From positions 71,795-117,318 of the forward strand of contig CAZMNA010000002.1 in assembly GCA_964567555.1 (NCBI GenBank): 45,524 bases of DNA, in the 5' to 3' direction. A program made the position numbers and the translations under genes. Position 1 is the first letter of the stretch; every line of letters starts with the position of its first letter. This DNA comes from an uncultured Candidatus Saccharibacteria bacterium (GTDB lineage: Bacteria; Patescibacteriota; Saccharimonadia; Saccharimonadales; UBA10212). Below are positions 1 to 43,341 of this stretch, in pieces. The notes below the pieces were generated by a model, which had not been told where the DNA came from, did not search any database, and saw only the letters and a list, made by a program, of their open reading frames with translations.

Positions 1-2290
1 TATTCAAACTAATTTTTACCAGACGAGGGTTAATAATGCCTGGCTCAAAATCATCAGGAATGATTAATAGTTTGCCATATGTACCCACAAGACTTATCAA
101 TACGTCGCCTGCCTTGATTTTGCAGCTTTCTAGCGACTTATATCTCTTCTCGTCAATATAGTAATCACCGTAATGTGCATCATGACGTATAACCTGCTCT
201 TGCCCATAAATTTTATATCCCGATGATGTGTAAAACTCCTTTTTAAGAGCTGAGCCAAAAGGTCCTGCTTTTATGGCGTTTTTCTCAGCTCTTGCTACGT
301 CCTGGATCTTGAGTCTTTGCCAAGCTGGATCAATTTTTACTGTCGGCTTATAGTTTTCTACGACTTGGCGGGCACCGTCGATGATTTTTTGGTAGCCGTC
401 TAGCTCGTCGACGATTTGTTTCTGTGCTTCAATCGGTGGTAGCGGTATTTTAATCTTCTTCAAGATTCCTACGGAGACAAAATTAAATGAGGTTTTTCCG
501 CTGAGTCTTTCTAACTCATCCTTGAATGTGGAGGTCAGCCAAAAAAGGAATTTTGGCAGCAAAACTTTTCTATCTTTTACGACTAGCCCGTTGAATTGCT
601 GGTTGGTGGTTAATTCTATCTCTGTAAATGCGTACTCTCCAACAGACGCAGTACAGCACAAAAGCACGGTTTCTTTTGGCAGGAGTTTGACACTAGTTTT
701 GTTCAGCGCATTCTCGGTTATATGTTTTGCTGTCTCGCGTATAGTGCGACCTTGCGATCGTATATCCTCGATAGTGAACCAGGGCACGTTGCCTTTATAC
801 CAAAATTCGGAGTTAGTTTTTGACGGTGTGCTGCCGTTAGAAATGTCTACAACCTCCCCGAGTTCTTTTATAGGCCAGCTTGTGTTTTGCAGTAGTTCAT
901 TCTCAATGTAGCGGCTGGCGCTGAGGTTATAGTCACCCGATTCAGCGATTTTTGATCGCTCGACCAAATTGACTTCGATAACTTTGCTAAATTCTCCTAT
1001 ATTACGAGTAGCCGCCTCTGATTCTAGATAATCATTAATCTGCTCCAGCTTGGTGAAGTCTCCGCTTCTGAATTTCAGCAGCACCTTGGCAATGGTTGGT
1101 AAATCATTTTTGTCGGGCGTCGGACGGCGCTGAGCGCCAAGATCAAAACCGTCGTGCTCCACTTTGGCAAATACAATATGCTTGGATAGCTTGGCCCTAT
1201 TGTTATCAAAAATCAAAATGCTGGTTTTTACTCCAGCGTAAGGATTAAAAACACCAGACGGCAAAGATACAACGGCCAACAAGCCATCCTCTACTAAAGC
1301 TTTGCGAAGCTGCACATACGCTTTGCCGCTTTGAAAGATAATGCCCTCCGGCACTATGATGCCAGCGCGGCCTTTTTGTTTAAGATGGCTCATTATATAG
1401 TCAACGAATAAGACCTCTGCCCGAGTTGCATCCACGCCAAATTTTTTATGTGGGGTAATGCCGCCCTTTGGGCTCATAAATGGTGGGTTAGCTATAATTA
1501 CGTCAAACATTTCATCCCAGCGCTCTTGGCTGGAAAGCGTGTCGTACTCGTATATTTTTGGTTGGCTGTTGCCATGCAGGTACATATTTACGCGAGCTAG
1601 CTTAACCATGTCGCTGCTAATGTCGTAGCCCTCTAGGTTGTCCATGAGCTTTTGTTTTTCGCCGTAAGTTAAGGGCTTTTTATCTTTGCCCTCATGCTTA
1701 CCGACAATGTGGTTGTAGGCACTGATTAAAAAGCCGGCGGTGCCGCAGGCAGGGTCAAGAATTGTGTCGCCAATGTCCGGGTCTATAACATCGACCATGA
1801 AGTCGATAATGTGGCGCGGCGTGCGGAACTGGCCGGCGTCACCCTGCGAGCCCATAATGCTAAGCAAATATTCAAAAGCGTTGCCTAGTTCTTCCGAATG
1901 GTTGTAGTCAAAAAACTCAATTTCTTTTAGGAATAAATCCAGGGTATGCGGATCGCGGTATGGCAAGAATGCTTGGCGGAAAATATCGCGGAATAGCGGC
2001 GGCAGACCGGCGGCGGTGCTAAATTTTTCCAGTGCTTCAGTGTACATATTTAACCGGTCTTGCGCGCCTGTGCGCGGATTCATTAATTTGCGCCAGGAAT
2101 ATTTTTCTAGGTCACTAGTGAAGAAGGTAGGTTTGCCACCAGCATCGATGGACTTTACGTCCATATCGTCCATGAATTTATAAATTAGCGCATTAGTTAT
2201 TTGATCTATTTGCGCCTTTGGGTCCGGCACTTTGCCAACCAAAACCTGCCGCGCCGCGTCAATATGTCTCTTTGTCTCAACAGTTAGCAC
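1..2290 (-). CDS. Type I-like N6-adenine methyltransferase fused to specificity (TRD) domains (HsdM-HsdS fusion), truncated by the window edge
   Basis: Missing from the ORF track because it runs off the edge. Hand translation from GTG at 2290 is open to position 2: MLTVETKRHIDAARQVLVGKVPDP..., GQFRTPRHII, motif I ILDPACGTAGF, motif IV IANPPF, then HsdS-like WPIKELGEVV...GSTPSK and KIPLPPIEAQKQIV followed by a second TRD. GGAGG and TATAAT (2311-2316) lie upstream. Confidence 0.9.
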   Translation of the reverse strand, partial: MLTVETKRHIDAARQVLVGKVPDPKAQIDQITNALIYKFMDDMDVKSIDAGGKPTFFTSDLEKYSWRKLMNPRTGAQDRLNMYTEALEKFSTAAGLPPLFRDIFRQAFLPYRDPHTLDLFLKEIEFFDYNHSEELGNAFEYLLSIMGSQGDAGQFRTPRHIIDFMVDVIDPDIGDTILDPACGTAGFLISAYNHIVGKHEGKDKKPLTYGEKQKLMDNLEGYDISSDMVKLARVNMYLHGNSQPKIYEYDTLSSQERWDEMFDVIIANPPFMSPKGGITPHKKFGVDATRAEVLFVDYIMSHLKQKGRAGIIVPEGIIFQSGKAYVQLRKALVEDGLLAVVSLPSGVFNPYAGVKTSILIFDNNRAKLSKHIVFAKVEHDGFDLGAQRRPTPDKNDLPTIAKVLLKFRSGDFTKLEQINDYLESEAATRNIGEFSKVIEVNLVERSKIAESGDYNLSASRYIENELLQNTSWPIKELGEVVDISNGSTPSKTNSEFWYKGNVPWFTIEDIRSQGRTIRETAKHITENALNKTSVKLLPKETVLLCCTASVGEYAFTEIELTTNQQFNGLVVKDRKVLLPKFLFWLTSTFKDELERLSGKTSFNFVSVGILKKIKIPLPPIEAQKQIVDELDGYQKIIDGARQVVENYKPTVKIDPAWQRLKIQDVARAEKNAIKAGPFGSALKKEFYTSSGYKIYGQEQVIRHDAHYGDYYIDEKRYKSLESCKIKAGDVLISLVGTYGKLLIIPDDFEPGIINPRLVKISLN

Positions 2291-2397
2291 TCGACCCTCC
2301 GCTTAGAGATATTATACTTCGTTTGAATACGAATTTGCGGCATCGGCTCAAACAGAAGTTCAAAATGGCATCAGTATATGCGTGCGATAATGACTAT

Positions 2398-3888
2398 ATG
2401 ACCAAAAAAGCTTATTTATCGAAGTCGGATTTTTTGAAGTATTTGGTTTGCCCGCAATATCTGTGGCTTTATAAATTCAAGCGTGAAGTTGTGCCACCAG
2501 ACGATGACTTTGTTGCCAAGCAAAGAATGAAGCAAGGCAATGAAGTAGAAGAGTGGGCACGTAAGCTCTACCCTGACGGGAAAATGGTTGATGAAAAGTT
2601 TGACGAAGCCCGCACACAAACTGAAAAGCTGGTTGCAGATGGAGCCAAGACAATTTTTCAAGCGACAGTTTTTACCGACAGCGGACTGCTAGTTAAGGCT
2701 GACGTTTTTAACTTTGACGAAAAAAGCAAAAGCTGGGAGATCCGCGAAGTAAAATCATCCACCAAGATCAAGAAGGACAGATTCCACATTGAGGACGTTG
2801 CCTTCCAAAAAGCCGCCTTTGAAAGTGCTGGATATAAAATCGGTAAAACTTACTTGGTGCATCTAGATAAAACCTACTCCCGTCACGGCGAGTTAAGTCC
2901 CAGGGGATTGTTTGAAGAAGAGGATGTTAGCGAGCAAGTTGATAAAATATCGCCCCAAATTAAAACTATGGCGGACGATGCACTGAAAATGCTCAAAGGG
3001 ACCGAAGAACCTAAGACTTGCAGTTGCCGGCTAAAATCCAAGACCAAACACTGCCCAACATTTAGCTACCTAAACCCGGATATCCCAGAATATTCCGTCT
3101 TTAACATTGCGCGAATCGCCGGGAAAAATTTAGCGCTACTGGTTGATAGTGAGGTCTATAACGTTGACGAAGTATCTGAGGACATCAAGCTTTCGCCAAT
3201 CCAAAGAAACCAAGTTAATGCGGCCAAAACCAAGCAACCGATTATTGACGGTGGAGAGATTGCTAAGGTTCTGGATGAACTTGAGTTTCCACTGTACTTT
3301 TTGGACTATGAAACTCTCAACCTGGCGCTACCTATTTACCAAGGCCACAAGCCATACCAGCATGTGCCGTTCCAGTACTCACTGCATGTTTTACCCGACC
3401 ATAACGCAGAGCTGGAACATTATGAGTTTCTAGACCGAGTAGGCAAACAACCGCCGGAACCGGAACTTTTGGAAAATTTGACCAAGCAAATTGGCAAAAC
3501 CGGCAATGTAATTGTTTGGAACAAATCATTTGAGATAGGCCGGAATAAAGATATGGCCGAGACATACAGCCAGTACGCTAATTTTCTAAACGACCTAAAT
3601 GACAGGGTATTTGACCTGATGGAGGTTTTTAGCAAGCAATTATTTATACACCCGGGTTTTATGGGCAGTAGCTCTATTAAAAAAGTTCTGCCGGTGATGG
3701 TGCCAGAATTTAGCTACAAAGAAATGGACATTCAAAGCGGCGACGTGGCCGCTATACGCTGGTATGACGCAACTAGTGGCAACGTTAGCAAAAGCCAAGC
3801 AGAAAAAACGTTTGACTCACTGATTAAGTACTGCGGGCTTGACACTCTGGCGATGGTCAAAATCTACGAAGCACTCAAAGCTGTATAA
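2398..3888 (+). CDS. DUF2779-domain protein: Cas4/AddB-like PD-(D/E)xK nuclease with Cys staple plus RNase H-like domain
   Basis: LSKSDFLKYLVCP, KADVF...EIREVKSS, CSCRLKSKTKHCP, FLDYET, PFQYSLH, YCGLDTLAM. Start moved from 2218 to ATG 2398, which lies 6 nt after TGcGATAAT. Confidence 0.8.
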   Translation: MTKKAYLSKSDFLKYLVCPQYLWLYKFKREVVPPDDDFVAKQRMKQGNEVEEWARKLYPDGKMVDEKFDEARTQTEKLVADGAKTIFQATVFTDSGLLVKADVFNFDEKSKSWEIREVKSSTKIKKDRFHIEDVAFQKAAFESAGYKIGKTYLVHLDKTYSRHGELSPRGLFEEEDVSEQVDKISPQIKTMADDALKMLKGTEEPKTCSCRLKSKTKHCPTFSYLNPDIPEYSVFNIARIAGKNLALLVDSEVYNVDEVSEDIKLSPIQRNQVNAAKTKQPIIDGGEIAKVLDELEFPLYFLDYETLNLALPIYQGHKPYQHVPFQYSLHVLPDHNAELEHYEFLDRVGKQPPEPELLENLTKQIGKTGNVIVWNKSFEIGRNKDMAETYSQYANFLNDLNDRVFDLMEVFSKQLFIHPGFMGSSSIKKVLPVMVPEFSYKEMDIQSGDVAAIRWYDATSGNVSKSQAEKTFDSLIKYCGLDTLAMVKIYEALKAV

Positions 3889-3918
3889 AATGGGTCTGGG
3901 CATCGGCTTTTTTCGAAT

Positions 3919-5073
3919 TTATGCGGCGACTGGGAACTCTAGCCACTTTTGGTCTTGGACAGCGCCGCGATTTTTAATCCAGATTACCGGCTCGTCTGTT
4001 ACACTGCCAATTTCTTTACCTGTTAGGCCGTGTTTTTTGCCTACTTCAATAACACTATCTGGATCTGACGTTACTACTATCAAACCTGTGCCCATGCATA
4101 AAGTATTGTAGGCTTCTTTGTCTGGCACCATTCCAAGCCTTTGTACTAAATCCATCGGTGTTGGAGGTTGAAAAGGGTTGTCGATAATAGCGCCGCAACC
4201 ACTGGCTTTGAGCAAACTCCCGAGCTTTTCTGGTATACCACCACCGCTGATATTGACCGCACCGTCGAATTCCGCCAGTGCCGGCCGCCTAAGGTCATAG
4301 CCACCTGTCATATCAACGAGCGCCGGCGTATAAACCTCGGACGGCCGAAGCACAAGATCGGCCAACCGCTGCCCCATGAAGATTTCCTCGCCCCAATCGG
4401 GCCCATAATAATATTCGAGAATATCTCTTACCAACGAATGGCCGTTGGTGCGGAAACCCGGCTCGAGGAAACCAACTAGTGGTTCGCCCGGCTTAATTTT
4501 GGAACTGTCGACTAGCCGCGATTCATGGCTGTAACCAGTCATCATTCCGGCTAGCTCAAACCTAAATTGGTCTAACGACCCCATTGTATTGTCTTGGGCT
4601 AGTTCGCCATTAGAGATTGATATGCCCAGGCGAGCCGTGGCGTCTACGGATCCTGCAGCAAGTTCCTGGATTTGCCTAAGCCGGTCATTGTCCTGCCCTA
4701 AAGTATTAACCTTTACATGAACAACAAGATGGACTGGTTCATATCCTCTGCAGGCGGCATCGGCGCCGCTTGCTTCGGCAAGGTCGGTGTAGATCGTACG
4801 TAAATTTCCGGCAATCCTGGCTATTTCAGGCTTACTGCCAGCACCGTCTGCAAACTCGTAAGTGACTGTTCCGGCAGGCAATTCCCCGACATCGGAATAC
4901 CGGACACCGCGAAAATCGTCATGCAGAGTGGTTATTTCGCCCAGCCTGCCCAGCCGATTTTTACTTGTAAGCTGTGAATATTCATATAGAGTCCGCGATG
5001 CTTCAGCCTCTACATGCACATCCACGCCTGATTCACCGTAACTAAAGCTTTTGGGCTTCCATGCTTCCGCCAT
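3919..5073 (-). CDS. purM: Phosphoribosylformylglycinamidine cyclo-ligase (AIR synthase) homolog, divergent
   Basis: SYGESGVD, DGAGSK, GELAQ, IKPGEPLVG...TNGHSLVR, NISGGGIPEKL and EAYNTLCMGTG match PurM motifs in order. Confidence 0.75.
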   Translation of the reverse strand: MAEAWKPKSFSYGESGVDVHVEAEASRTLYEYSQLTSKNRLGRLGEITTLHDDFRGVRYSDVGELPAGTVTYEFADGAGSKPEIARIAGNLRTIYTDLAEASGADAACRGYEPVHLVVHVKVNTLGQDNDRLRQIQELAAGSVDATARLGISISNGELAQDNTMGSLDQFRFELAGMMTGYSHESRLVDSSKIKPGEPLVGFLEPGFRTNGHSLVRDILEYYYGPDWGEEIFMGQRLADLVLRPSEVYTPALVDMTGGYDLRRPALAEFDGAVNISGGGIPEKLGSLLKASGCGAIIDNPFQPPTPMDLVQRLGMVPDKEAYNTLCMGTGLIVVTSDPDSVIEVGKKHGLTGKEIGSVTDEPVIWIKNRGAVQDQKWLEFPVAA

Positions 5074-13904: not shown

Positions 13905-14471
13905 CTAGAGGTTGAGCGTTTTTTTGACTTGAGCCTTGAAAGCTTCTAAGTCATTACTGCCGTTCTCAATAAAAATGTCGGCGTTTTTTTTAACAGCAGC
14001 CATATTGAGCGTGGCGTCATCGCCGCTGTGGGCCATCTCAGCTTTTTCTTCGGCTAAAAACTGTTGATAGGTCTTTTGGTCTTTATCACCTTGAGCGCGG
14101 CTGTAGATGCGCTCGTAACGAACGTGTGGGCTTGCGTCTACCCAAACAACCTTACCGCCAAGCTCGTGCACACGCTGCACTTCCCCGGGATGACGCAAAC
14201 TACCCACTACAAGACCTTCATATTTTTTACCGGAGGATTCACACAGCTTCACGGCCCGGTCTACCACCGCACCCATACCCTCTTTTTGACGCCACTCAGT
14301 CGTCAGAGCAGACATTTGCTCACGCTCCAGCGGGCGTCCAAGACGTTTGAGTTCCGGGATGATTAAATCACCAGAAGATGATACAAAAAACCAGCCATAA
14401 TCATCCTTTAACAACGCTGCCAAGCTATCTTTGCCCGAACCATTTGTGCCGGCAATACCTAGAATTTTCAT
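13905..14471 (-). CDS. P-loop nucleotide kinase (dephospho-CoA/NMP kinase-like)
   Basis: GIAGTNGSGKD Walker A, SLRHPGE, VWVDASPHVRYERI..R. Confidence 0.75.
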   Translation of the reverse strand: MKILGIAGTNGSGKDSLAALLKDDYGWFFVSSSGDLIIPELKRLGRPLEREQMSALTTEWRQKEGMGAVVDRAVKLCESSGKKYEGLVVGSLRHPGEVQRVHELGGKVVWVDASPHVRYERIYSRAQGDKDQKTYQQFLAEEKAEMAHSGDDATLNMAAVKKNADIFIENGSNDLEAFKAQVKKTLNL

Positions 14472-15079
14472 TTATTATCTCTCTCGCCTTCGATATATAG
14501 CCGAACAAGGTCTGGAACAAGTTCGTCCACTTTGTTAGGCTCAATGCCTATCCTCTCAGCTAATTCTCCTCTTAGTTGCCGAGCGCCGGCAAGCCCACCA
14601 ATACCGAGTTCGTTGCCCACTTCGGCCCATGTTCTACCTTCATCTATCATTTCCAGCGCTTCAAATTCTTGGGGACTAAGACCAACAGCAATACTGCCTA
14701 AATCTAGGCTGGTTTGTGTTTTTGCTTTTTGAATATCTTCCGCCATTTTTTCCAAGGGTAGCGTATGAGGACCTAGGTGCATCCCCGCTCTCTTGAAGAG
14801 TCTTTGTGCATTGGTCTTGGATATAGCCATGTAGTCCGCTATTTCGCTAAAGGGCATCGGCCCGCTTTTTCCGGATAAGCCCAGGTGGAGTTCGTAAGCT
14901 CGGCGCAATTTATAATCTAAATGGCGCAGAGCTTGTAGGGCCATTTTGCGAGGGTCGTCCTCAACAATTCTTGCAACGGCTTCGGGCACATGCATTGCCA
15001 GTTCCCTTTCCAGCTCCTCAATCGTAGGCAGCTCCCTGGATCTGGGGTCAAAAGGGTCGGGTGTTTCTTCTTCAGCCAT
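14468..15079 (-). CDS. Hypothetical protein with sigma70 region 4-like HTH and LuxR-like HTH
   Basis: ALRHLDYKLRRAYELHLGL...MPFSEIADYMAISKTNAQRL.KRA and LSPQEFEALEMIDEGRTWAEVGNELGI. Confidence 0.55.
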   Translation of the reverse strand: MAEEETPDPFDPRSRELPTIEELERELAMHVPEAVARIVEDDPRKMALQALRHLDYKLRRAYELHLGLSGKSGPMPFSEIADYMAISKTNAQRLFKRAGMHLGPHTLPLEKMAEDIQKAKTQTSLDLGSIAVGLSPQEFEALEMIDEGRTWAEVGNELGIGGLAGARQLRGELAERIGIEPNKVDELVPDLVRLYIEGERDNK

Positions 15080-15088
15080 TTGAAAAAT

Positions 15089-16339
15089 TTATTGTAAATA
15101 CTCGTGCAGGCGGCGGGTATCTTTGTTCTTGCGCAGTTTGGCCAGAGCCTTGGCTTCAATTTGACGAATGCGCTCACGGGTGACGCTAAATTCTTGGCCG
15201 ACTTCTTCAAGCGTGTGGCTTTTGCCGTCTTCTAGCCCAAAGCGTAGCTTTAAAATCTTTTGCTCGCGGTCGGTTAAAGACGACAATATCCGGCGGACTT
15301 GTTCTTTGAGCAGTTGCTCAGAAGCCGACTCGGTCGGGGTTTTGGCGTCTTCATCTTCAATAAAGTCACCCAGTACTGAATCTTCCTCATCGTCGCGCAC
15401 AGACGCGTCCAGGCTGGAAATGTCCTGCTTGATTTTCATGATGTGCTCAACTTTATCTACGTCCATTTCCATAGCCACGGCGATTTCTTCGTTGGTAGGT
15501 TCGCGGTTGAGCTCTTGGGTTAATCTACGCTGGGTTCTAAGCAGTTTATTGATGGTCTCTACCATATGCACCGGAATACGAATGGTACGGGCTTGGTCGG
15601 CAATGGCCCGGGTGATGGCTTGGCGGATCCACCAAGTGGCATAGGTGGAGAATTTAAAGCCGCGGTCAGGGTCAAATTTTTCCACCGCTCTAAGCAGGCC
15701 GGTATTGCCTTCCTGAATTAAGTCCAGTAAATCCAAGCCACGCCCTACGTAACGCTTGGCGATGGACACAACCAGGCGCATGTTAGCCTCGGCCATGGCG
15801 TCCTTGGCGCGTTTTTCACCGCGCTTTACCCGGCGGGCCAGTGCCAGCTCTTCCTCGGCCGTCAGCAGCGGGATTTTACCGATTTCACGCAAGTAAAGCC
15901 GCACAGAGTCGTCTGAAATATCATCCAGGAAGGCGGCGTCTGGCGTGACGGTTTTTTCTTCGGGTTCGTCTTCCCATTCGGCTAAGTCGGTGGCTTCTGG
16001 AGCCTCCACCGGCACCAGCTCAATATCGTTTTCGCTCATTTCGGCATAGAGCCGCTCCAGCACATCAATATTGGCAGGCGTATCGGGTATAAGAGTAAAT
16101 ATTTCGCGCTGTTCTAGCTTGCCATCGCGCTTGGCCTGTTCCAATAACTGGGAAATTTCGCGGTCGTAGCTTTTGGAGGTACGGCGTGGGCCGCGTTTAG
16201 CAGCCACTTTAGCTACAGCCGGCTTTTTAGCCACCGGTTTCTTAACCACCGGTTTTTTAACGGCAGCAGCTTTTTTGGGGGCAGCTTTTTTTATCGCCGG
16301 TTTTTTGGCTTTGGGCTTCGCGGTATCTTTTTTAGGCAT
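15089..16339 (-). CDS. rpoD: Primary RNA polymerase sigma factor RpoD
   Basis: [37 protein letters not shown]-type region ([33 protein letters not shown]), [13 protein letters not shown]. Confidence 0.97.
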
Positions 16340-16344
16340 AGGGG

Positions 16345-18102
16345 CTAACCTTCCTGATTCATTAGTTGATTAAGAGTATCCACCTTTTTTATAAGTTGTT
16401 TCATCTTTTTATCATCACTAGTTTCGCGCATTTGCGCGGCTAGTTTTTGCTTTTGGAGAGTTATGTAGCGGCTAATAAGCCGGTGAGCTAAATTGTTAGA
16501 CTGCTCTTCTAGGTCACTAAAGGGCAGGTCTTTATATAGCTCCTCAAATTGTAACGTTATTATTTTAACATAATCAGATATATCCCGCAATTTGGCAGCA
16601 GTTTTTGCATCCTTGGTAAAGTCCGGGTTATCCTGCAAAAATCCTAGAACCTTTTGGCGTGTATCATCTGTAAAATATTCGGCTTTTATATTTTTGAGTA
16701 GCCAGCGTAGTTTGGGCTGAGCAAACGTGATGGCCAAAAAATGGTCCTGCATACGCTGGTATTCTGACGCTACAACATCAATCTCGGTCTCCAGCCCTTT
16801 AGGTTTTTTAAATAGCGGCTGAGCTACGGGAGATTTGGTGAACTTGGCCTGCACGGCTTCTAAGCTGGTATCCGTCAATTCGGCGATTTTTTTAAGATAA
16901 TGTTCCCGCTCTACTGGATCGGTCAGTGCGCGGATGACGTTAAGCAGCGCATCAGTAAAAGCCCGTTTGCCATCGGCAGTGGAAAGATCCAGTTCAGCTG
17001 CATAAAGCTTTATGAGCCAATCGGGCGCATAGACAGCCGCTTCGACCGCCCTTTGCCAGGCTCCGGCGTCTTTGCTTACCAGCTCGTCGGGATCCTTGGC
17101 GCCGGTAATGGTAATAATTTTGAGCGATACGTCTGTCTTTTGGGCTAGCGGAATAATGCGTTCGGTGGCAGCAATACCGGCGCTGTCGGCATCAAAACAA
17201 AGCCGGGTATCACCGGTGAAACGTTTTAGAATTTTAAGATGATGCTCGGTCATGGCCGTACCGGCGCTGGCTACCACATTGGGAAAACCGGCCTGGTGAC
17301 AGCCAATCACGTCCATATTGCCTTCTACCACAACCACGTAGCCGTCTTTGCGGATAGACGCCTTGGCCAGATCCAGCCCATACACCTGGCGGCTTTTGTC
17401 ATACAAAATAGTTTGAGGTGTATTGATGTATTTGGGAGCGCCAGGCTCGTCTGCCAGCAATCTGGCCGTAAAGCCCACCACCGAACCGGCTTGGTCGGCT
17501 AGGGGAATCATGATCCGGCCGCGGAACATATCGCGCGCACCGCTTGCGCGCATCGTTACCAAACCTGCCCGCTTCATCTCATCGGTGCTAAAGCCGCGCT
17601 TGGTCAAAAAATTAGTTAAGGCTGTGCCGCTACTGGGCGAATAGCCCAACCGCCATTGCAAGATAGTCTTTTTGGTTAAACTCCGCTGCCTTATTAAGTA
17701 CTTTAGGGCGGGCTGATTTGCGGAAAGCTGTGTTTGATAAAACTTGACGGCCAGCTCCAGAGCTTCAGTGGCCCGAGTTTTTAATTTAGTGTTAGCTGTT
17801 TTTGGGCCAGTTTTGTACTGATCTAGGTCCACGCCGGCTTGACGGGCTAGGTGTGCTAGCGCACCAGCAAAATCCAACCCTTCCATCTCCATGATAAAGC
17901 TAAAGACGTCGCCGCCTTTACCAGAGCTAAAATCGTGCCAAATCTGTTTTTCGGGGCTGACTATGAAACTCGGTGTCTTTTCATTAGTCCAGGGTGAGAG
18001 GCCCTTAAAATTGCGACCGGCGCGTTTTAGCTGAACGTACCCACTAACTACGTCTTCAATATTCAAACGAGCCTTAACTTCACCTGCCGCATCCATATCC
18101 AT
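16345..18102 (-). CDS. dnaG: DNA primase
   Basis: [54 protein letters not shown]. Confidence 0.97.
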
Positions 18103-18143
18103 AAGTTTATAGCGCGCGGGCTCAACCTAAAAGCACGAGCAGT

Positions 18144-18220
18144 TTATGTATTGGCCGTGACTAGTCCGTAGGAATGTCTTATCAAGTCTTTGATTTCATC
18201 ATCACCCACTGACCGGTAAG
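18144..18220 (-). pseudogene. Duplicated 3'-end fragment of an mmcQ/yjbR-family gene
   Basis: Translates LTGQ(-1 nt)GDDEIKDLIRHSYGLVTANT*, compared with the intact gene end LTGQLSWDEVKDLINHSYNLVIG* at 18307-18378. Confidence 0.8.
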
Positions 18221-18306
18221 AGCGGCTCCGCCTTATGAGACAAACCAAAGGTGTTTCTCATCGCGCCGGGCAAAAAGCGCGATTTTTGCTCGGGCTCTCT
18301 TTTCCT

Positions 18307-18627
18307 TCAGCCAATCACCAGATTGTAAGAGTGATTTATTAAGTCCTTGACCTCATCCCAAGAAAGTTGTCCCGTTAAAACAATTGTGTTCCAGTGCTTT
18401 TTGTTCAAGTGGTAGCCCGGCATGACGGTTTCATACTTCTCACGCAGAGTTTGGGCTAAAAGTGGATCACATTTTAGGCTTACTTGGATGGGCTCTTTTC
18501 CTTCTTGGATGAGAGCAAACATTTTGTCACCAACCTTATAGACAGCCGTCTTTTCACCGAACGGATAATCAAGCTTGGCGTCTGGCAGGCTTAAAATATA
18601 CTTTTCCAGGCGCGAAAAGCTTAGCAT
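18307..18627 (-). CDS. MmcQ/YjbR family protein
   Basis: DYPFGEKTAVYKVGDKMFAL, LKCDP, PGYHLNKKHWNT. Confidence 0.9.
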   Translation of the reverse strand: MLSFSRLEKYILSLPDAKLDYPFGEKTAVYKVGDKMFALIQEGKEPIQVSLKCDPLLAQTLREKYETVMPGYHLNKKHWNTIVLTGQLSWDEVKDLINHSYNLVIG

Positions 18628-18857
18628 TAGTCCTTAGCTATACGGGAAATTAACTCGGCTAGAACTAGGCTAATACCAAAACCGGCCACTTGCCGCCAAG
18701 TCACGCTCCACCAGGCAGCCCAGCCAGGCACACCAAAAGATTCGGACGCGAAACTAATTAAATTAGCTAGCGAAAAGGCGACCAAAATGCCAACTATGAT
18801 GTTGTTGGTTGATTTTTCGCGCAGGACACCGTGGAGTTTGGGTTTTAATGAGCTCAT
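18627..18857 (-). CDS. Small hypothetical membrane protein
   Basis: Two hydrophobic segments; 1-nt overlap with the mmcQ start. Confidence 0.55.
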   Translation of the reverse strand: MSSLKPKLHGVLREKSTNNIIVGILVAFSLANLISFASESFGVPGWAAWWSVTWRQVAGFGISLVLAELISRIAKD

Positions 18858-18886: not shown

Positions 18887-19297
18887 TTATTTTCCGGCCG
18901 GTTTAAAGTCTAAGCAGGCCGAATTAATACAATAGTGCTTGTCGTGAACTTCGCCCGGTACGTCTTCAAATAAATGTCCCAGGTGGCTGCCGCAATTAGC
19001 ACAAGAAATCTCTACCCCACGCATCCCCATGCTGTCATCGTCCGTCAATTTAATTGCTTCAGAGCGAGCAACATCAGAAAAGCTAGGCCAGCCCGTAAGC
19101 CCCGGAGCAGTTGATTCAAACTTGGTGTCAGAACTAAACAGCTCCGCGCCGCAGACAACGCACCTATACATGCCTTTTTCAGAATGATTAACGTATTTAC
19201 CTGAAAATGGTGCCTCTGTGCCCTTTTCGCGCAATAAATGATACTGCTCTGGCGTCAGCTTCTTTTTTAATTCTTCGTCATCTAACTGCTTGGTCAT
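18887..19297 (-). CDS. msrB: Peptide-methionine (R)-S-oxide reductase
   Basis: LTPEQY..LREKGTE.PFSG, CVVCG, GWPSF, CANCGSHLGH.F, YCINS. Start set at ATG 19297, just after the argS stop. Confidence 0.95.
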   Translation of the reverse strand: MTKQLDDEELKKKLTPEQYHLLREKGTEAPFSGKYVNHSEKGMYRCVVCGAELFSSDTKFESTAPGLTGWPSFSDVARSEAIKLTDDDSMGMRGVEISCANCGSHLGHLFEDVPGEVHDKHYCINSACLDFKPAGK

Positions 19298-19298
19298 T

Positions 19299-20951
19299 TT
19301 ACACTTGCTCCGGCGCATCTATGTTAAGTAAACCAAGCCCGTGCTTTAAAACATCTGCGTAGGCACCAACCAGTTTTAGCCGGGTAGCTTCCCGCTCATT
19401 GCCAATCACACGATTCTTCTCATAAAAGCGGTTAAAGGCTTGGGCTAGCTCGTACAAATAAGTGCAGACGTGTGAGGGCAATAGCTCCCCAGTGGCTTGG
19501 GCTACCACATCTGGATATTCACTGATTTTGCGCGCTAAAGCGCGTTCATCGGACTCTAAATTATCAATCTTCCCGGCTTTGACGTCACCAGCTTTTTTCA
19601 AGATACTTTTGGCCCGCGCATGAGCATACTGCAAATACGGCCCGGAGTTGCCTTCTAAACTGACCGATTCCGCTGGATTGTAGACCATGTCAGCGCCTAT
19701 ACGATTTTTTAAAAAGCTGTATTTCACTGCGCCTAGAGCTACTGTAAAGTTTTCTTTTTGGTTGATCTTTTTGTTAGCTGTATCGGCCATATCCAACACT
19801 GCTTCGGCGCTTACTATATTGCCCTTGCGGCTACTCATCTTTACACCGCCGGGCATTTTTACCAATCCATGGCTGACGTGCGTAGTCTTCTTTACCAGCT
19901 CCGGGGCAAATTGTTCGACTGCTTTTAGTACAACCTGCATATATTCGTAAATTTCGTTGCCGGTAATTACCACCGATTGGTCAAAATGATAATCCTCCCA
20001 CTTTTTTAGCAGTAAGCCTATGTCTTTGGTCTCATAAGTCGGCAGACCCTGACTATTTATAAATACTCGCGTATGCATATTGTGAACTTCGCCCTTAAAC
20101 ACCACTGCGCCCTCTGATTTTTCAAAAACCTTGCCCATGTTTTCTTTAACAGCTTTGAGACCTAGTTCTACTGTTTGACTTTCCGGATAATATTTCTCGA
20201 ATTGAGTTCCAATCTTGGCATAAAACTCGTCAAAATAGTCGTAGCTCCACTGGCGCGTAGTCCAGTATATTTTTGCGAGCGAAGAATTTTTATCATTGTG
20301 TTCGTACAGACTATAAATTTGCTTGTTTAGCGCTTCGATTGTTATTTTAGCCTCAGGTTTCTCGTAAAAATCATTGCCCTCAACGTAACGAGCAGTCATC
20401 CATTGCGCTCTCCCATCTTTTGGAACGTTGCTGAGCTTGTCCGGCAGCTCACCACCAAGGTTTTGGATGATGGCATACATTGTCTTGGCAACGTGTAGCC
20501 CGACATCGCCGCCAAAATTCACCCGATGGACTGTCGCGCCAGCGGATTCTAACAAGTTAGCGATAGCGTCACCCACGATACTCGTATAAAGATGGCCAAC
20601 GTGCAGCACCTTGAAAGGATTAGGATCAGAGTACTCTGCCACTATTTCTTGGTCCTTGAGCGGTTTAGGTATTTTAGTGGCGCCAATTGCAGCTTTGGCA
20701 ATAGCCTCGTCCGGCAACGTTATGTTAATAAAGCCCGGGCCGGCTACTTTGGCGCCGTCAATTTTAACGGCTATAGATTCTGCGATATCGCTAGGCTTTT
20801 TATCCAGTTGCTTGGCGAGCTGCATGGCAACATTGGTAGAAAAATCACCAAACTTCTCGTCCGGCCGGCTAAGCTGTGGCTCTACTTCCTGCCCAAATAA
20901 ATCCCGACAGGCAGACTTGAGTAAATTTTTTATGTCTTGGCTATTCACCAC
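19299..20951 (-). CDS. argS: Arginine--tRNA ligase
   Basis: FGDFSTN, GPGFINI, EYSDPNPFKVLHVGH, GDVG, KMSSRKG, EGNSGPYLQYAHAR. Confidence 0.96.
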   Translation of the reverse strand: MVNSQDIKNLLKSACRDLFGQEVEPQLSRPDEKFGDFSTNVAMQLAKQLDKKPSDIAESIAVKIDGAKVAGPGFINITLPDEAIAKAAIGATKIPKPLKDQEIVAEYSDPNPFKVLHVGHLYTSIVGDAIANLLESAGATVHRVNFGGDVGLHVAKTMYAIIQNLGGELPDKLSNVPKDGRAQWMTARYVEGNDFYEKPEAKITIEALNKQIYSLYEHNDKNSSLAKIYWTTRQWSYDYFDEFYAKIGTQFEKYYPESQTVELGLKAVKENMGKVFEKSEGAVVFKGEVHNMHTRVFINSQGLPTYETKDIGLLLKKWEDYHFDQSVVITGNEIYEYMQVVLKAVEQFAPELVKKTTHVSHGLVKMPGGVKMSSRKGNIVSAEAVLDMADTANKKINQKENFTVALGAVKYSFLKNRIGADMVYNPAESVSLEGNSGPYLQYAHARAKSILKKAGDVKAGKIDNLESDERALARKISEYPDVVAQATGELLPSHVCTYLYELAQAFNRFYEKNRVIGNEREATRLKLVGAYADVLKHGLGLLNIDAPEQV

Positions 20952-42499: not shown

Positions 42500-43341
42500 A
42501 ATTCTAGGTGTTTTTTTACCCGGGCGATGCTTTCCTTGGGTTCGTAAGAATTAAAGCGTGAAATTTGCCAGCCGGCTTTATCCGCCAGGACAATAGCGAT
42601 TTTGTCATCGTCTACTAAAAGCGTTTGCTCGGGCGCATAGCCAGCTTTAGCCAGGGCCAACTCGTAAATTTTGGGGCTGGTTTTAAGCATTTTTACCTCG
42701 GATGAGTCAACTACTTGGCTGAATTTGTCTAGCGGCAACTTACCTGCCTTGTCCAAGCCATCAATCAGACCTGGCATAGTGCCGGATAATAAACCAATTT
42801 CATAATGCGAAGCAGTCCAGTCAATAAGCTCTTTGATTCCCTCTACAGGCTCTACTGAGTCAAGGTAATAATCTGTCCAGTCAAAATCGCTTAAGCCCAG
42901 CTTTTGACCAACTGACCTATTGTAATCATCCATAGAAATCTGGCCGGAGCAGACCTCGTCATCATAGCGCCAAAAGGTAGCTTCTACAGTGTCCATTGGC
43001 ATGCCTGAGAGCTTGGCAATCATAGGGAAAGCCTTTGCATAACCACGGACCAAAGTGCCGTTTAAATCAAAATATATAAACTTTATCCCTGTTTTGGAAG
43101 TTTTTTTATTGCCCGCTGATTGGGGAGTTGCCATGCCTAAAAGGCTTTCTACTGTCGTGCCGGTAGCCGTGGCGATGGATGTGACCGTAAACACACTTGG
43201 CGCTTTGATGGCACCACGCTCAATTTTTGCCAGTGTGGAATAGCTCAAACCCGCCTTATGACACAACTCTTGTTGTGTCAGCCCAGCCGCCCGGCGAGCC
43301 TGAGCCAAGCGCTGCCCTAGCGCCTCCGCGTTTTCCCCCAT
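42496..43341 (-). CDS. XRE-type HTH fused to HAD-family phosphatase
   Basis: RRAAGLTQQELCHKAGLSYSTLAKIERG, then FDLNGTL, KTSPKIY, LVDDD. Confidence 0.85.
   Translation of the reverse strand: MGENAEALGQRLAQARRAAGLTQQELCHKAGLSYSTLAKIERGAIKAPSVFTVTSIATATGTTVESLLGMATPQSAGNKKTSKTGIKFIYFDLNGTLVRGYAKAFPMIAKLSGMPMDTVEATFWRYDDEVCSGQISMDDYNRSVGQKLGLSDFDWTDYYLDSVEPVEGIKELIDWTASHYEIGLLSGTMPGLIDGLDKAGKLPLDKFSQVVDSSEVKMLKTSPKIYELALAKAGYAPEQTLLVDDDKIAIVLADKAGWQISRFNSYEPKESIARVKKHLEF

Follow-up and report, generated by a model that had tools for sequence, protein, structure and literature searches.

The window analysed here was a 45,524-nt stretch of contig CAZMNA010000002.1 (positions 71,795 to 117,318, forward strand) from an uncultured Candidatus Saccharibacteria bacterium. 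The subject of the analysis was a short structured element, which we call E, that lay at the 3' end of the mmcQ gene and was followed by a second, dead copy of that gene end. All features of the locus were on the - strand. In the direction of transcription, they were argS (19299-20951), msrB (18887-19318), a gene for a predicted membrane protein of 76 amino acids with no convincing Pfam match (18627-18857), the intact mmcQ/YjbR gene (106 amino acids; Pfam PF04237; 18307-18627), the 204-nt interval between mmcQ and dnaG, the primase gene dnaG (16345-18102), and rpoD (15089-16339). The interval was made up of E (18221-18306), the dead copy of the mmcQ end (18144-18220), and 41 nt that, as read from the sequence, ran from the stop codon of this remnant to the start codon of dnaG (18103-18143). 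For MmcQ as well as DnaG, the homologues that bore names came from the order Saccharimonadales.

The intact MmcQ protein matched PF04237 over the full length of the profile (positions 1-88 of 88; E-value, 2e-31). Its homologues in Saccharimonadales bore the name MmcQ/YjbR, and its relatives in the PDB were 2A1V and 2FKI. The C-terminus read LTGQLSWDEVKDLINHSYNLVIG, followed by the stop codon. The last two codons and the stop codon (ATT GGC TGA, 18307-18315) were junction sequence rather than a family-typical tail, and the working, upstream copy of the duplicated target was placed at 18316-18378 (codons LTGQLSWDEVKDLINHSYNLV).

The downstream remnant read CTT ACC GGT CAG (LTGQ), then 2 nt, and then GGT GAT GAT GAA ATC and onward to TAA, which gave GDDEIKDLIRHSYGLVTANT before the stop codon. 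It corresponded to the last 25 codons of mmcQ with a 1-nt deletion near 18207-18208, its first base was 18220 and not 18221, and it lay 86 nt past the end of the intact gene. The repaired peptide scored 27.5 bits against a hidden Markov model (HMM) of 120 MmcQ homologues, with an E-value of 8.8e-6 when scaled to the 47,409 six-frame segments of the window and 80 related loci. A six-frame HMM match and the codon-position pattern described below also identified the remnant. The reading, the deletion, and the HMM score bore out the proposal of a first-pass annotation of this DNA that the end of mmcQ was duplicated in a diverged and frameshifted form. The duplicated stretch was about 63-75 nt long (the last 21-25 mmcQ codons). 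Fifteen of the 18 cleanly aligned codons encoded the identical residue, and 11 of those 15 were different codons; the annotation's point that the shared codons differed was sound, and its wording that nearly every one did so was slightly overstated. The longest exact match between the two ends was 6 nt, and there was no identical core. The 204-nt interval was identical in ten independent assemblies (contigs from JGI, ENA, and Logan), and a separate 454-nt Logan contig that ran across both mmcQ ends and the spacer between them (18048-18501) showed zero differences. The duplication of the mmcQ end was not an assembly artefact.

The 86-nt spacer between the two gene ends consisted of a 5' tail (AGGAAAAGAGAGCC), hairpin 1 (18266-18293), the junction GCGCG, hairpin 2 (18235-18261), and a 3' tail (AAGGCGGAGCCGCT), so the two hairpins that had been predicted in the spacer were present. 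Hairpin 1 varied in sequence and kept its pairing, and hairpin 2 (ATGAGAAACACC / GGTTTGTCTCAT) was the most sequence-conserved part. A homologous spacer lay between mmcQ and an mmcQ-end remnant in a relative (locus L047) whose DnaG was 54% identical to that of the window. The two spacers shared GGAAAAGAG.AGCCCGAG, a hairpin 1 with other sequence and the same pairing, and CCCGGCGCGATGAGAAA.ACC ... GGTTTGTCTCATAAGGCG.AGCCGC. A nhmmer profile was built from these two spacers and used to search other species. Together with the covariance model, it located E at six other sites in and near the argS-msrB-mmcQ-dnaG-rpoD block, one directly before mmcQ (L025), one just after mmcQ (L052), one between dnaG and rpoD (L020), one after rpoD (L089), and two further downstream (L019 and L032). 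An eight-copy covariance model that was run over 857 kb recovered exactly those eight copies. The spacer of the window scored 86.7 bits (E-value, 6e-24) under the covariance model and was the single copy in the window; a second motif resembling hairpin 2, at 43252-43269, lay inside a gene for a helix-turn-helix domain protein and was dismissed as a chance match.

The family was also present in metagenomes. A DNA pattern scan of metagenome contigs yielded at least 120 stretches with the E pattern, and the covariance model identified 92 E copies in 80 loci from the matches listed, with 2-4 copies in several contigs. The 92 copies are those among the metagenome matches listed, and counts out of 92 or 97 copies below are not totals for the family. 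In the E alignment, standard pairs occupied 96% of the helix cells compared to 75% in shuffles, double-sided changes numbered 381 compared to 105 in shuffles, and pairing dropped to 35-54% when the partner columns were slid. The ATGAGA/TCTCAT base of hairpin 2 was set by the search pattern, so only hairpin 1 and the portion of hairpin 2 above that base contribute evidence from covariation. Rfam 15 contained no family that matched the E copy of the window (E-values up to 10) or four other copies (E-values up to 1), and our literature searches returned no description of the element. The pattern scan found no E in viral contigs, and a BLAST search of plasmid and phage records with an E copy gave no match. 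E is an undescribed, dispersed, multi-copy family of structured elements in Saccharimonadales genomes and metagenomes. In rhizosphere metagenome assemblies, the contig depth over E (18228-18315) was 5-10x that of the flanks, and many different sequences left either side. The excess depth and the many exits indicated that those communities hold multiple copies of E and that assemblies are likely to break at it.

To compare relatives, dnaG neighbourhoods were taken from 80 GTDB species, with dnaG as the conserved anchor. The mmcQ gene was upstream of dnaG in about 70 of the 80, and the interval between the two genes ranged from 168 to > 4000 nt. Only 3 of the approximately 70 relatives had E at the mmcQ end. 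A six-frame HMM scan of these relatives detected no second copy of mmcQ and one further gene-end remnant, that of L047. Two diverged gene-end copies side by side might also be what is left of a tandem mmcQ paralogue that decayed to its last 25 codons, and the first-pass annotation had named a full second paralogue with an unconserved spacer as the case that would overturn its reading. Neither part of that case held: no second copy was present in the approximately 70 relatives with mmcQ beside dnaG, and the spacer was conserved. Moreover, the intervening sequence was a conserved element and not decayed mmcQ, and the same layout occurred at lepA, msrA, and ribosomal-protein genes. We consider a decayed paralogue extremely improbable.

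Gene content differed between mmcQ and dnaG, which made the interval a variable spot in the order. A convergent open reading frame (ORF) of about 196 codons with no Pfam match was located there in L211 (3343-3942), L212, and L213 (991-1581), and L212 also carried a GDSL lipase gene in the interval (L212 region, 2258-3931); both genes were missing from the window and from L011.

Similar duplications flanked E copies elsewhere. For each copy, 150 nt of upstream sequence was aligned to 150 nt of downstream sequence, and mismatched flanks served as the control. Fourteen of the 97 copies exceeded the 99th percentile of the control. Exact direct repeats of >= 10 nt surrounded 13 of 92 copies compared to 0.8% of controls, with an excess at all lengths. 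The flank repeats were 8 to about 75 nt long and almost always covered a start or stop codon, so both adjoining genes remained intact. Identical pairs were found at the 3' end of lepA (L142, 42 nt) and the 5' end of msrA (L146, 38 nt). Diverged pairs were found at the same two gene ends in other loci (lepA in L128, 56 nt; msrA in L106 and L127), at the junction of the rpmC stop and rpsQ start codons (L107, 22 nt), and at the ribosome-binding site and start codon of rpsN (L130, 23 nt). Further pairs were located at the 3' end of another gene (L117, 44 nt), at a terminator (L105, 42 nt), and, as in the window, at the 3' end of mmcQ in L047 (about 63 nt, with 2 differences in 50 nt) and L052 (18-23 nt). 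In the window, filler sequence provided the new tail IG of MmcQ, and the stop codon was at the junction with E.

The two mmcQ ends of the window differed at codon positions 1, 2, and 3 by 3, 2, and 13 substitutions, respectively, and the corresponding numbers for five diverged pairs together (67 codons) were 7, 3, and 39. This third-position bias indicated that both copies were coding for most of their divergence, and hence that one of them came from another lineage. An alternative is that the target-site duplication was made in place, after which the downstream copy decayed while the upstream copy remained under selection. The near-identical flank pairs in L047, L142, L146, L117, and L105 are in line with duplication in place at those sites. 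We simulated in-place decay for the window by allowing only synonymous changes in the working copy and letting the remnant drift to the same third-position divergence. The simulated pairs had a mean of 20 differences at positions 1 and 2, the probability of 5 or fewer was 0.0003, and a stop codon arose in 57% of the runs. The third-position pattern recurred in four other pairs as well, and duplication in place followed by decay is very improbable as an account of the window. The two copies in the window are alleles whose divergence took place in separate lineages while each was part of a working gene. On this point the first-pass annotation was right in substance: it had argued for a replacement end from another lineage and against a simple tandem duplication. 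The third-position differences further suggested that homologous recombination with another Saccharimonadales lineage created the structure or later exchanged it. Import between lineages was seen directly in L128, where the remnant and the lepA end of L142 were 88% identical and the functional copies were about 72% identical.

A diversity-generating retroelement would likewise place a non-coding copy near the 3' end of a gene, with the gene end as the variable repeat and the copy downstream of it as the template repeat. Candidate phyla radiation (CPR) genomes often carry such retroelements. However, the differences in the window were not adenine-specific (the remnant had A at only about 6 of the 18 differing positions) and were synonymous rather than diversifying, Pfam scans of the neighbouring genes to about 10 kb detected no reverse transcriptase, and the targets of E included start codons, ribosome-binding sites, and a terminator. 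We give this explanation next to no weight.

Which of the two ends is native was judged from the tails. The nearest relatives by DnaG were L211 (72% identical) and L212 (70%), both of which lacked E; their MmcQ proteins ended in LTGQLDEQEIKDLIRHSYELVTATSE and ..LVVQQA, respectively. The seventh tail residue was Trp in 176 of 187 family members and in the working copy of the window, and it was a residue other than Trp in the remnant, L211, and L212. By a rank-based reading, the remnant matched the tails of L211 and L212 at about 17-18 of 22 positions; the working end matched them at 15 of 22. In addition, the remnant tail LVTANT was family-typical and the working tail LVIG was not. These tails favour, with moderate confidence, the remnant as the native end and the working end as the imported one, which agrees with the earlier idea that the original end had been displaced downstream. 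The proposed comparison with orthologs was informative at the tails, where the remnant was nearer to L211 and L212, and gave no signal in the rest of mmcQ. Because the best DnaG match was only 72% identical, a DNA-level comparison of the two ends with the vertical allele was not possible. An MmcQ C-terminus of the form ..AG was considered as a marker of E insertion and rejected, as L213 and L214 had this ending without E and the convergent ORF overlapped the gene end in L213.

The first-pass annotation had explained the locus as an attachment scar in which incoming DNA supplied a replacement end. Spelled out, this would mean that a site-specific recombinase integrated a cargo element at the 3' end of mmcQ together with a replacement end and that the cargo was later lost, leaving 86 nt. 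A displaced end that follows a replacement end is indeed the classic attL/attR arrangement, the two copies are alleles, and the mmcQ-dnaG interval varies among relatives across the range given above. The foreign replacement end was supported, and the attachment scar of a cargo-carrying element was not. The 86 nt were a complete conserved element that was also present at unrelated sites, and bracketing duplications likewise surrounded E copies at unrelated genes. The two ends had no identical core, as their 6-nt longest match showed, and Pfam scans of the neighbouring genes found no integrase, recombinase, or transposase within about 10 kb. No relative carried cargo genes between two mmcQ ends; the extra 2 kb in L047 sat after the remnant and not between the copies. 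The boundaries of the duplication varied among the window, L047, and L052, and E had no match in viral contigs, phages, or plasmids. It is thus improbable that the locus originated as the scar of an attached cargo island. In a search for a partner protein, 458 ORFs from the surroundings of E copies were clustered. No recurrent recombinase- or transposase-like cluster emerged, and the largest clusters were spurious ORFs from rRNA genes.

E copies were found beside protein genes and beside stable RNA genes. Next to protein genes, E was mostly intergenic and in either orientation, including positions between ribosomal-protein genes and at the ends of lepA, msrA, and mmcQ. At least 19 of 97 copies were 0-15 nt 5' of a tRNA gene on the same strand, and only one or two copies next to tRNA genes were on the opposite strand. 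Eleven tRNA types were represented, and the loci with this arrangement included L096, L098, L100, L102, L104, L109, L111, L113, L126, L134, L136, L138, L139, L156, L161, and L162. In some of these cases, a TATAAT box was present 10-20 nt 5' of E, so that E would form the 5' leader of the pre-tRNA. Further copies bordered the 5' end of 23S rRNA, occupied the rRNA spacer, or were inside 23S genes (L097, 69-3630; L157, 1-2668; L120, 1-3028; L164; L095, 6040-6130; L169, 1421-1489), mostly in the sense orientation. L097 had four copies within 5 kb, and one internal copy, at about Rfam model position 583, coincided with the helix-25 site of 23S intervening sequences. The 23S gene of L120 also held a group I intron.

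The antisense strand of E resembled a terminator. On the + strand of the window, hairpin 1 (18266-18306 region) followed by GCTCTCTTTT fit the pattern of an intrinsic terminator, and in the family as a whole, hairpin 1 on the opposite strand was followed by the terminator-like GCTCTTTTCC. The run that matched this pattern (AAAGAGCA on the sense strand) was >= 90% conserved across copies. On the sense strand, G-U pairs outnumbered A-C pairs (31 compared to 17), which is a weak pointer. A search for RNA sequencing runs that contain this stretch of the window found none. These features suggest that the sense-only orientation in stable-RNA operons may be explained by selection against an internal terminator. 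As a guess at function, E could be an insert that is tolerated by read-through on the sense strand and a terminator-like hairpin on the other. Three other possibilities were discarded: an E-encoded peptide, because reading frames were not conserved; hammerhead or other ribozyme cores, because the hammerhead core motifs were missing; and an rRNA boxA, because the boxA-like run TGCTCTTT was on the antisense strand.

We considered whether E is instead a fixed functional RNA signal, such as a processing or leader element in the transcripts of stable RNAs and operons or a one-way terminator, with the duplications being by-products of recombination at a conserved sequence. The same-strand position before tRNA genes, the mostly sense copies at the 5' end of or inside 23S rRNA, the strong covariation, the G-U excess, and the terminator-like antisense strand would all be expected of such a signal. 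However, the presence of E varied at orthologous positions (3 of approximately 70 at the mmcQ end and six places around the block), its orientation relative to protein genes was mixed, and flanking direct repeats were in excess at all lengths. A purely functional explanation is unlikely on this evidence, although less so than the other alternatives weighed here. Function and mobility of E are compatible and not mutually exclusive.

Given the anatomy of the locus, the element family, the recurring flank duplications, and the allelic copies, we think it probable, though far from settled, that E inserts with a long target duplication and is spread or exchanged between lineages by homologous recombination. 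In this proposal, E would first enter a site with a duplication and produce identical flanks, such as those of L047, L142, and L146. DNA with the order end-E-end would then reach other lineages by natural transformation. Natural competence, with recombination of the DNA taken up, is documented in Saccharibacteria (PMC10633639). The resident gene end, present once, would pair with one arm of the donor DNA; the remainder, E with the second donor copy, would form a loop that became an insertion. The outcome would be one resident copy and one foreign copy; recombination anchored within the conserved E would be an alternative route to the same outcome. At mmcQ, the copy on the 5' side stays joined to the gene, keeps it whole, and has gained a two-residue tail, and the copy on the 3' side is a dead gene end that acquired one frameshift.

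Several results weigh against this proposal. Among the E copies, 83 of 97 had no long duplication. The ends of E were not precisely conserved, no terminal inverted repeats were visible in the E consensus, and filler of variable length lay between E and the repeats (5' side, about 4-30 nt; 3' side, 0-19 nt). The different boundaries of the duplication in the window, L047, and L052 argue against a single simple story. Where different lineages carried E at a shared gene end, hairpin 1 had different sequences, which fits independent insertions or hairpin swapping better than one spreading cassette. No empty-site allele of the same species was found, as the ten contigs with the same MmcQ were all identical, and the metagenome contigs over the window likewise contained no empty site and only extra depth over E from other copies. 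Since the closest DnaG proteins were 70-72% identical, the insertion was deduced from distant relatives. Finally, the assignment of the native and imported ends depended on a single uncommon residue plus a small number of positions in the tail, and the N-terminal 82 residues of MmcQ gave no phylogenetic signal for the start of a recombination tract.

A more specific version of the proposal, which we offer only tentatively, is that E is a non-autonomous genetic parasite, of a new kind, of naturally competent CPR bacteria. It would have no transposase of its own, and the end-E-end unit would home via its own homology arms to the corresponding gene in any lineage by transformation and host recombination, leaving allelic duplications. 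In the sense orientation it would be tolerated in essential transcripts (pre-tRNA leaders, 23S helix 25, and ribosomal-protein operons, for example), and in the antisense orientation it would terminate transcription. Saccharibacteria and other CPR bacteria have tiny genomes with few recognised mobile elements, and E would provide a new handle on rearrangement and DNA exchange in these genomes. The allelic duplications record recombination between lineages at the resolution of single genes. Gene ends beside E may be mosaics, which matters for phylogeny and annotation, and the repeat can break or mis-join metagenome assemblies.

Several observations were made on the genes of the block itself. 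The stop codon (TAA) of the 76-amino-acid gene shared the A of the mmcQ start codon (ATGCTAA; a one-base overlap), and this gene pair was kept in L211 and L212 (75-76 amino acids). Several MmcQ genes (L020, L036, L033, L024, and L042) carried extra in-frame stretches, 8-78 residues long, that separated AVYKV from KMFAL; the insert of L020 (190 nt, 60-249) was about 80% identical to that of L036 (3140-3381), had a strong fold, and was unrelated to E. In the 41 nt upstream of dnaG, a TATAAA sequence, which is a putative promoter box, was 4 nt 5' of the ATG, with no evident Shine-Dalgarno sequence. Comparable TATACT-type boxes were directly 5' of the dnaG ATG in L211 and L212, and the boxes right before the ATG suggest that the dnaG transcript may be leaderless. 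A 203-codon ORF after rpoD (14468-15079, - strand) had a faint match to sigma-70 region 4, and one or two extra rpoD-like genes (30-57% identical) were present on the downstream side of rpoD in many relatives (L011-L039).

Known classes of repeats and insertions each share some features with E. Miniature inverted-repeat transposable elements and repetitive extragenic palindromic elements and their like (Correia, ERIC, RUP, and Rickettsia palindromic elements) are short, non-coding, multi-copy, hairpin-forming, and mostly intergenic, and can carry terminator-like activity. E is likewise short, non-coding, multi-copy, hairpin-forming, and mostly intergenic. In contrast to these elements, it lacks terminal inverted repeats, its flank repeats range from 8 to about 75 nt instead of being short and constant in length, its conservation is covarying rather than palindromic, and it has a strong same-strand link to tRNA 5' ends. 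With integrative elements that carry a replacement gene end in attP, E shares a working end upstream, a displaced end downstream, and a possibly foreign end. Unlike integrative elements that target gene 3' ends, it has no recombinase, cargo, or identical crossover core, and its boundaries vary.

The insertion sequences IS1549 and IS1634 generate direct repeats of variable length (8-514 bp; PMC2266710). These elements are 1.5-2 kb long and have a transposase and terminal inverted repeats, whereas E has neither, and the clustering of 458 neighbouring ORFs detected no transposase of the IS1634/IS1549 type near any E copy. Among the rRNA insertions of Saccharibacteria, 64 of 66 were short, lacked introns or ORFs, and were left uncharacterised (PMC11270868). 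E resembles the 23S intervening sequences at helices 25 and 45 in that copies in 23S genes are short, ORF-less, and form extended stem-loops. Some copies (e.g., that of L097) are at such a site, and the copy of the window is between protein genes. E differs from these sequences in that it is also found in pre-tRNA leaders and between or at the ends of protein genes, with target duplications.

Insertion with long target duplication was described for restriction-modification genes with kilobase inserts (Nobusato et al. 2000, cited in Furuta et al. 2010, PMC2853133), mostly in naturally competent bacteria and with repeats often over start or stop codons. E shares with it long direct repeats of variable length that are single copy in genomes without the insert, repeats that span start or stop codons, the survival of the flanking genes, and the lack of a mobility gene. 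In the window, the repeats were longer than about 30 bp and spanned the stop codon, relatives had a single mmcQ end, and no mobility gene was present. E differs from that system in being a multi-copy hairpin element of 86 nt with no coding sequence, and in that about half of its long repeats are allelic rather than near-identical.

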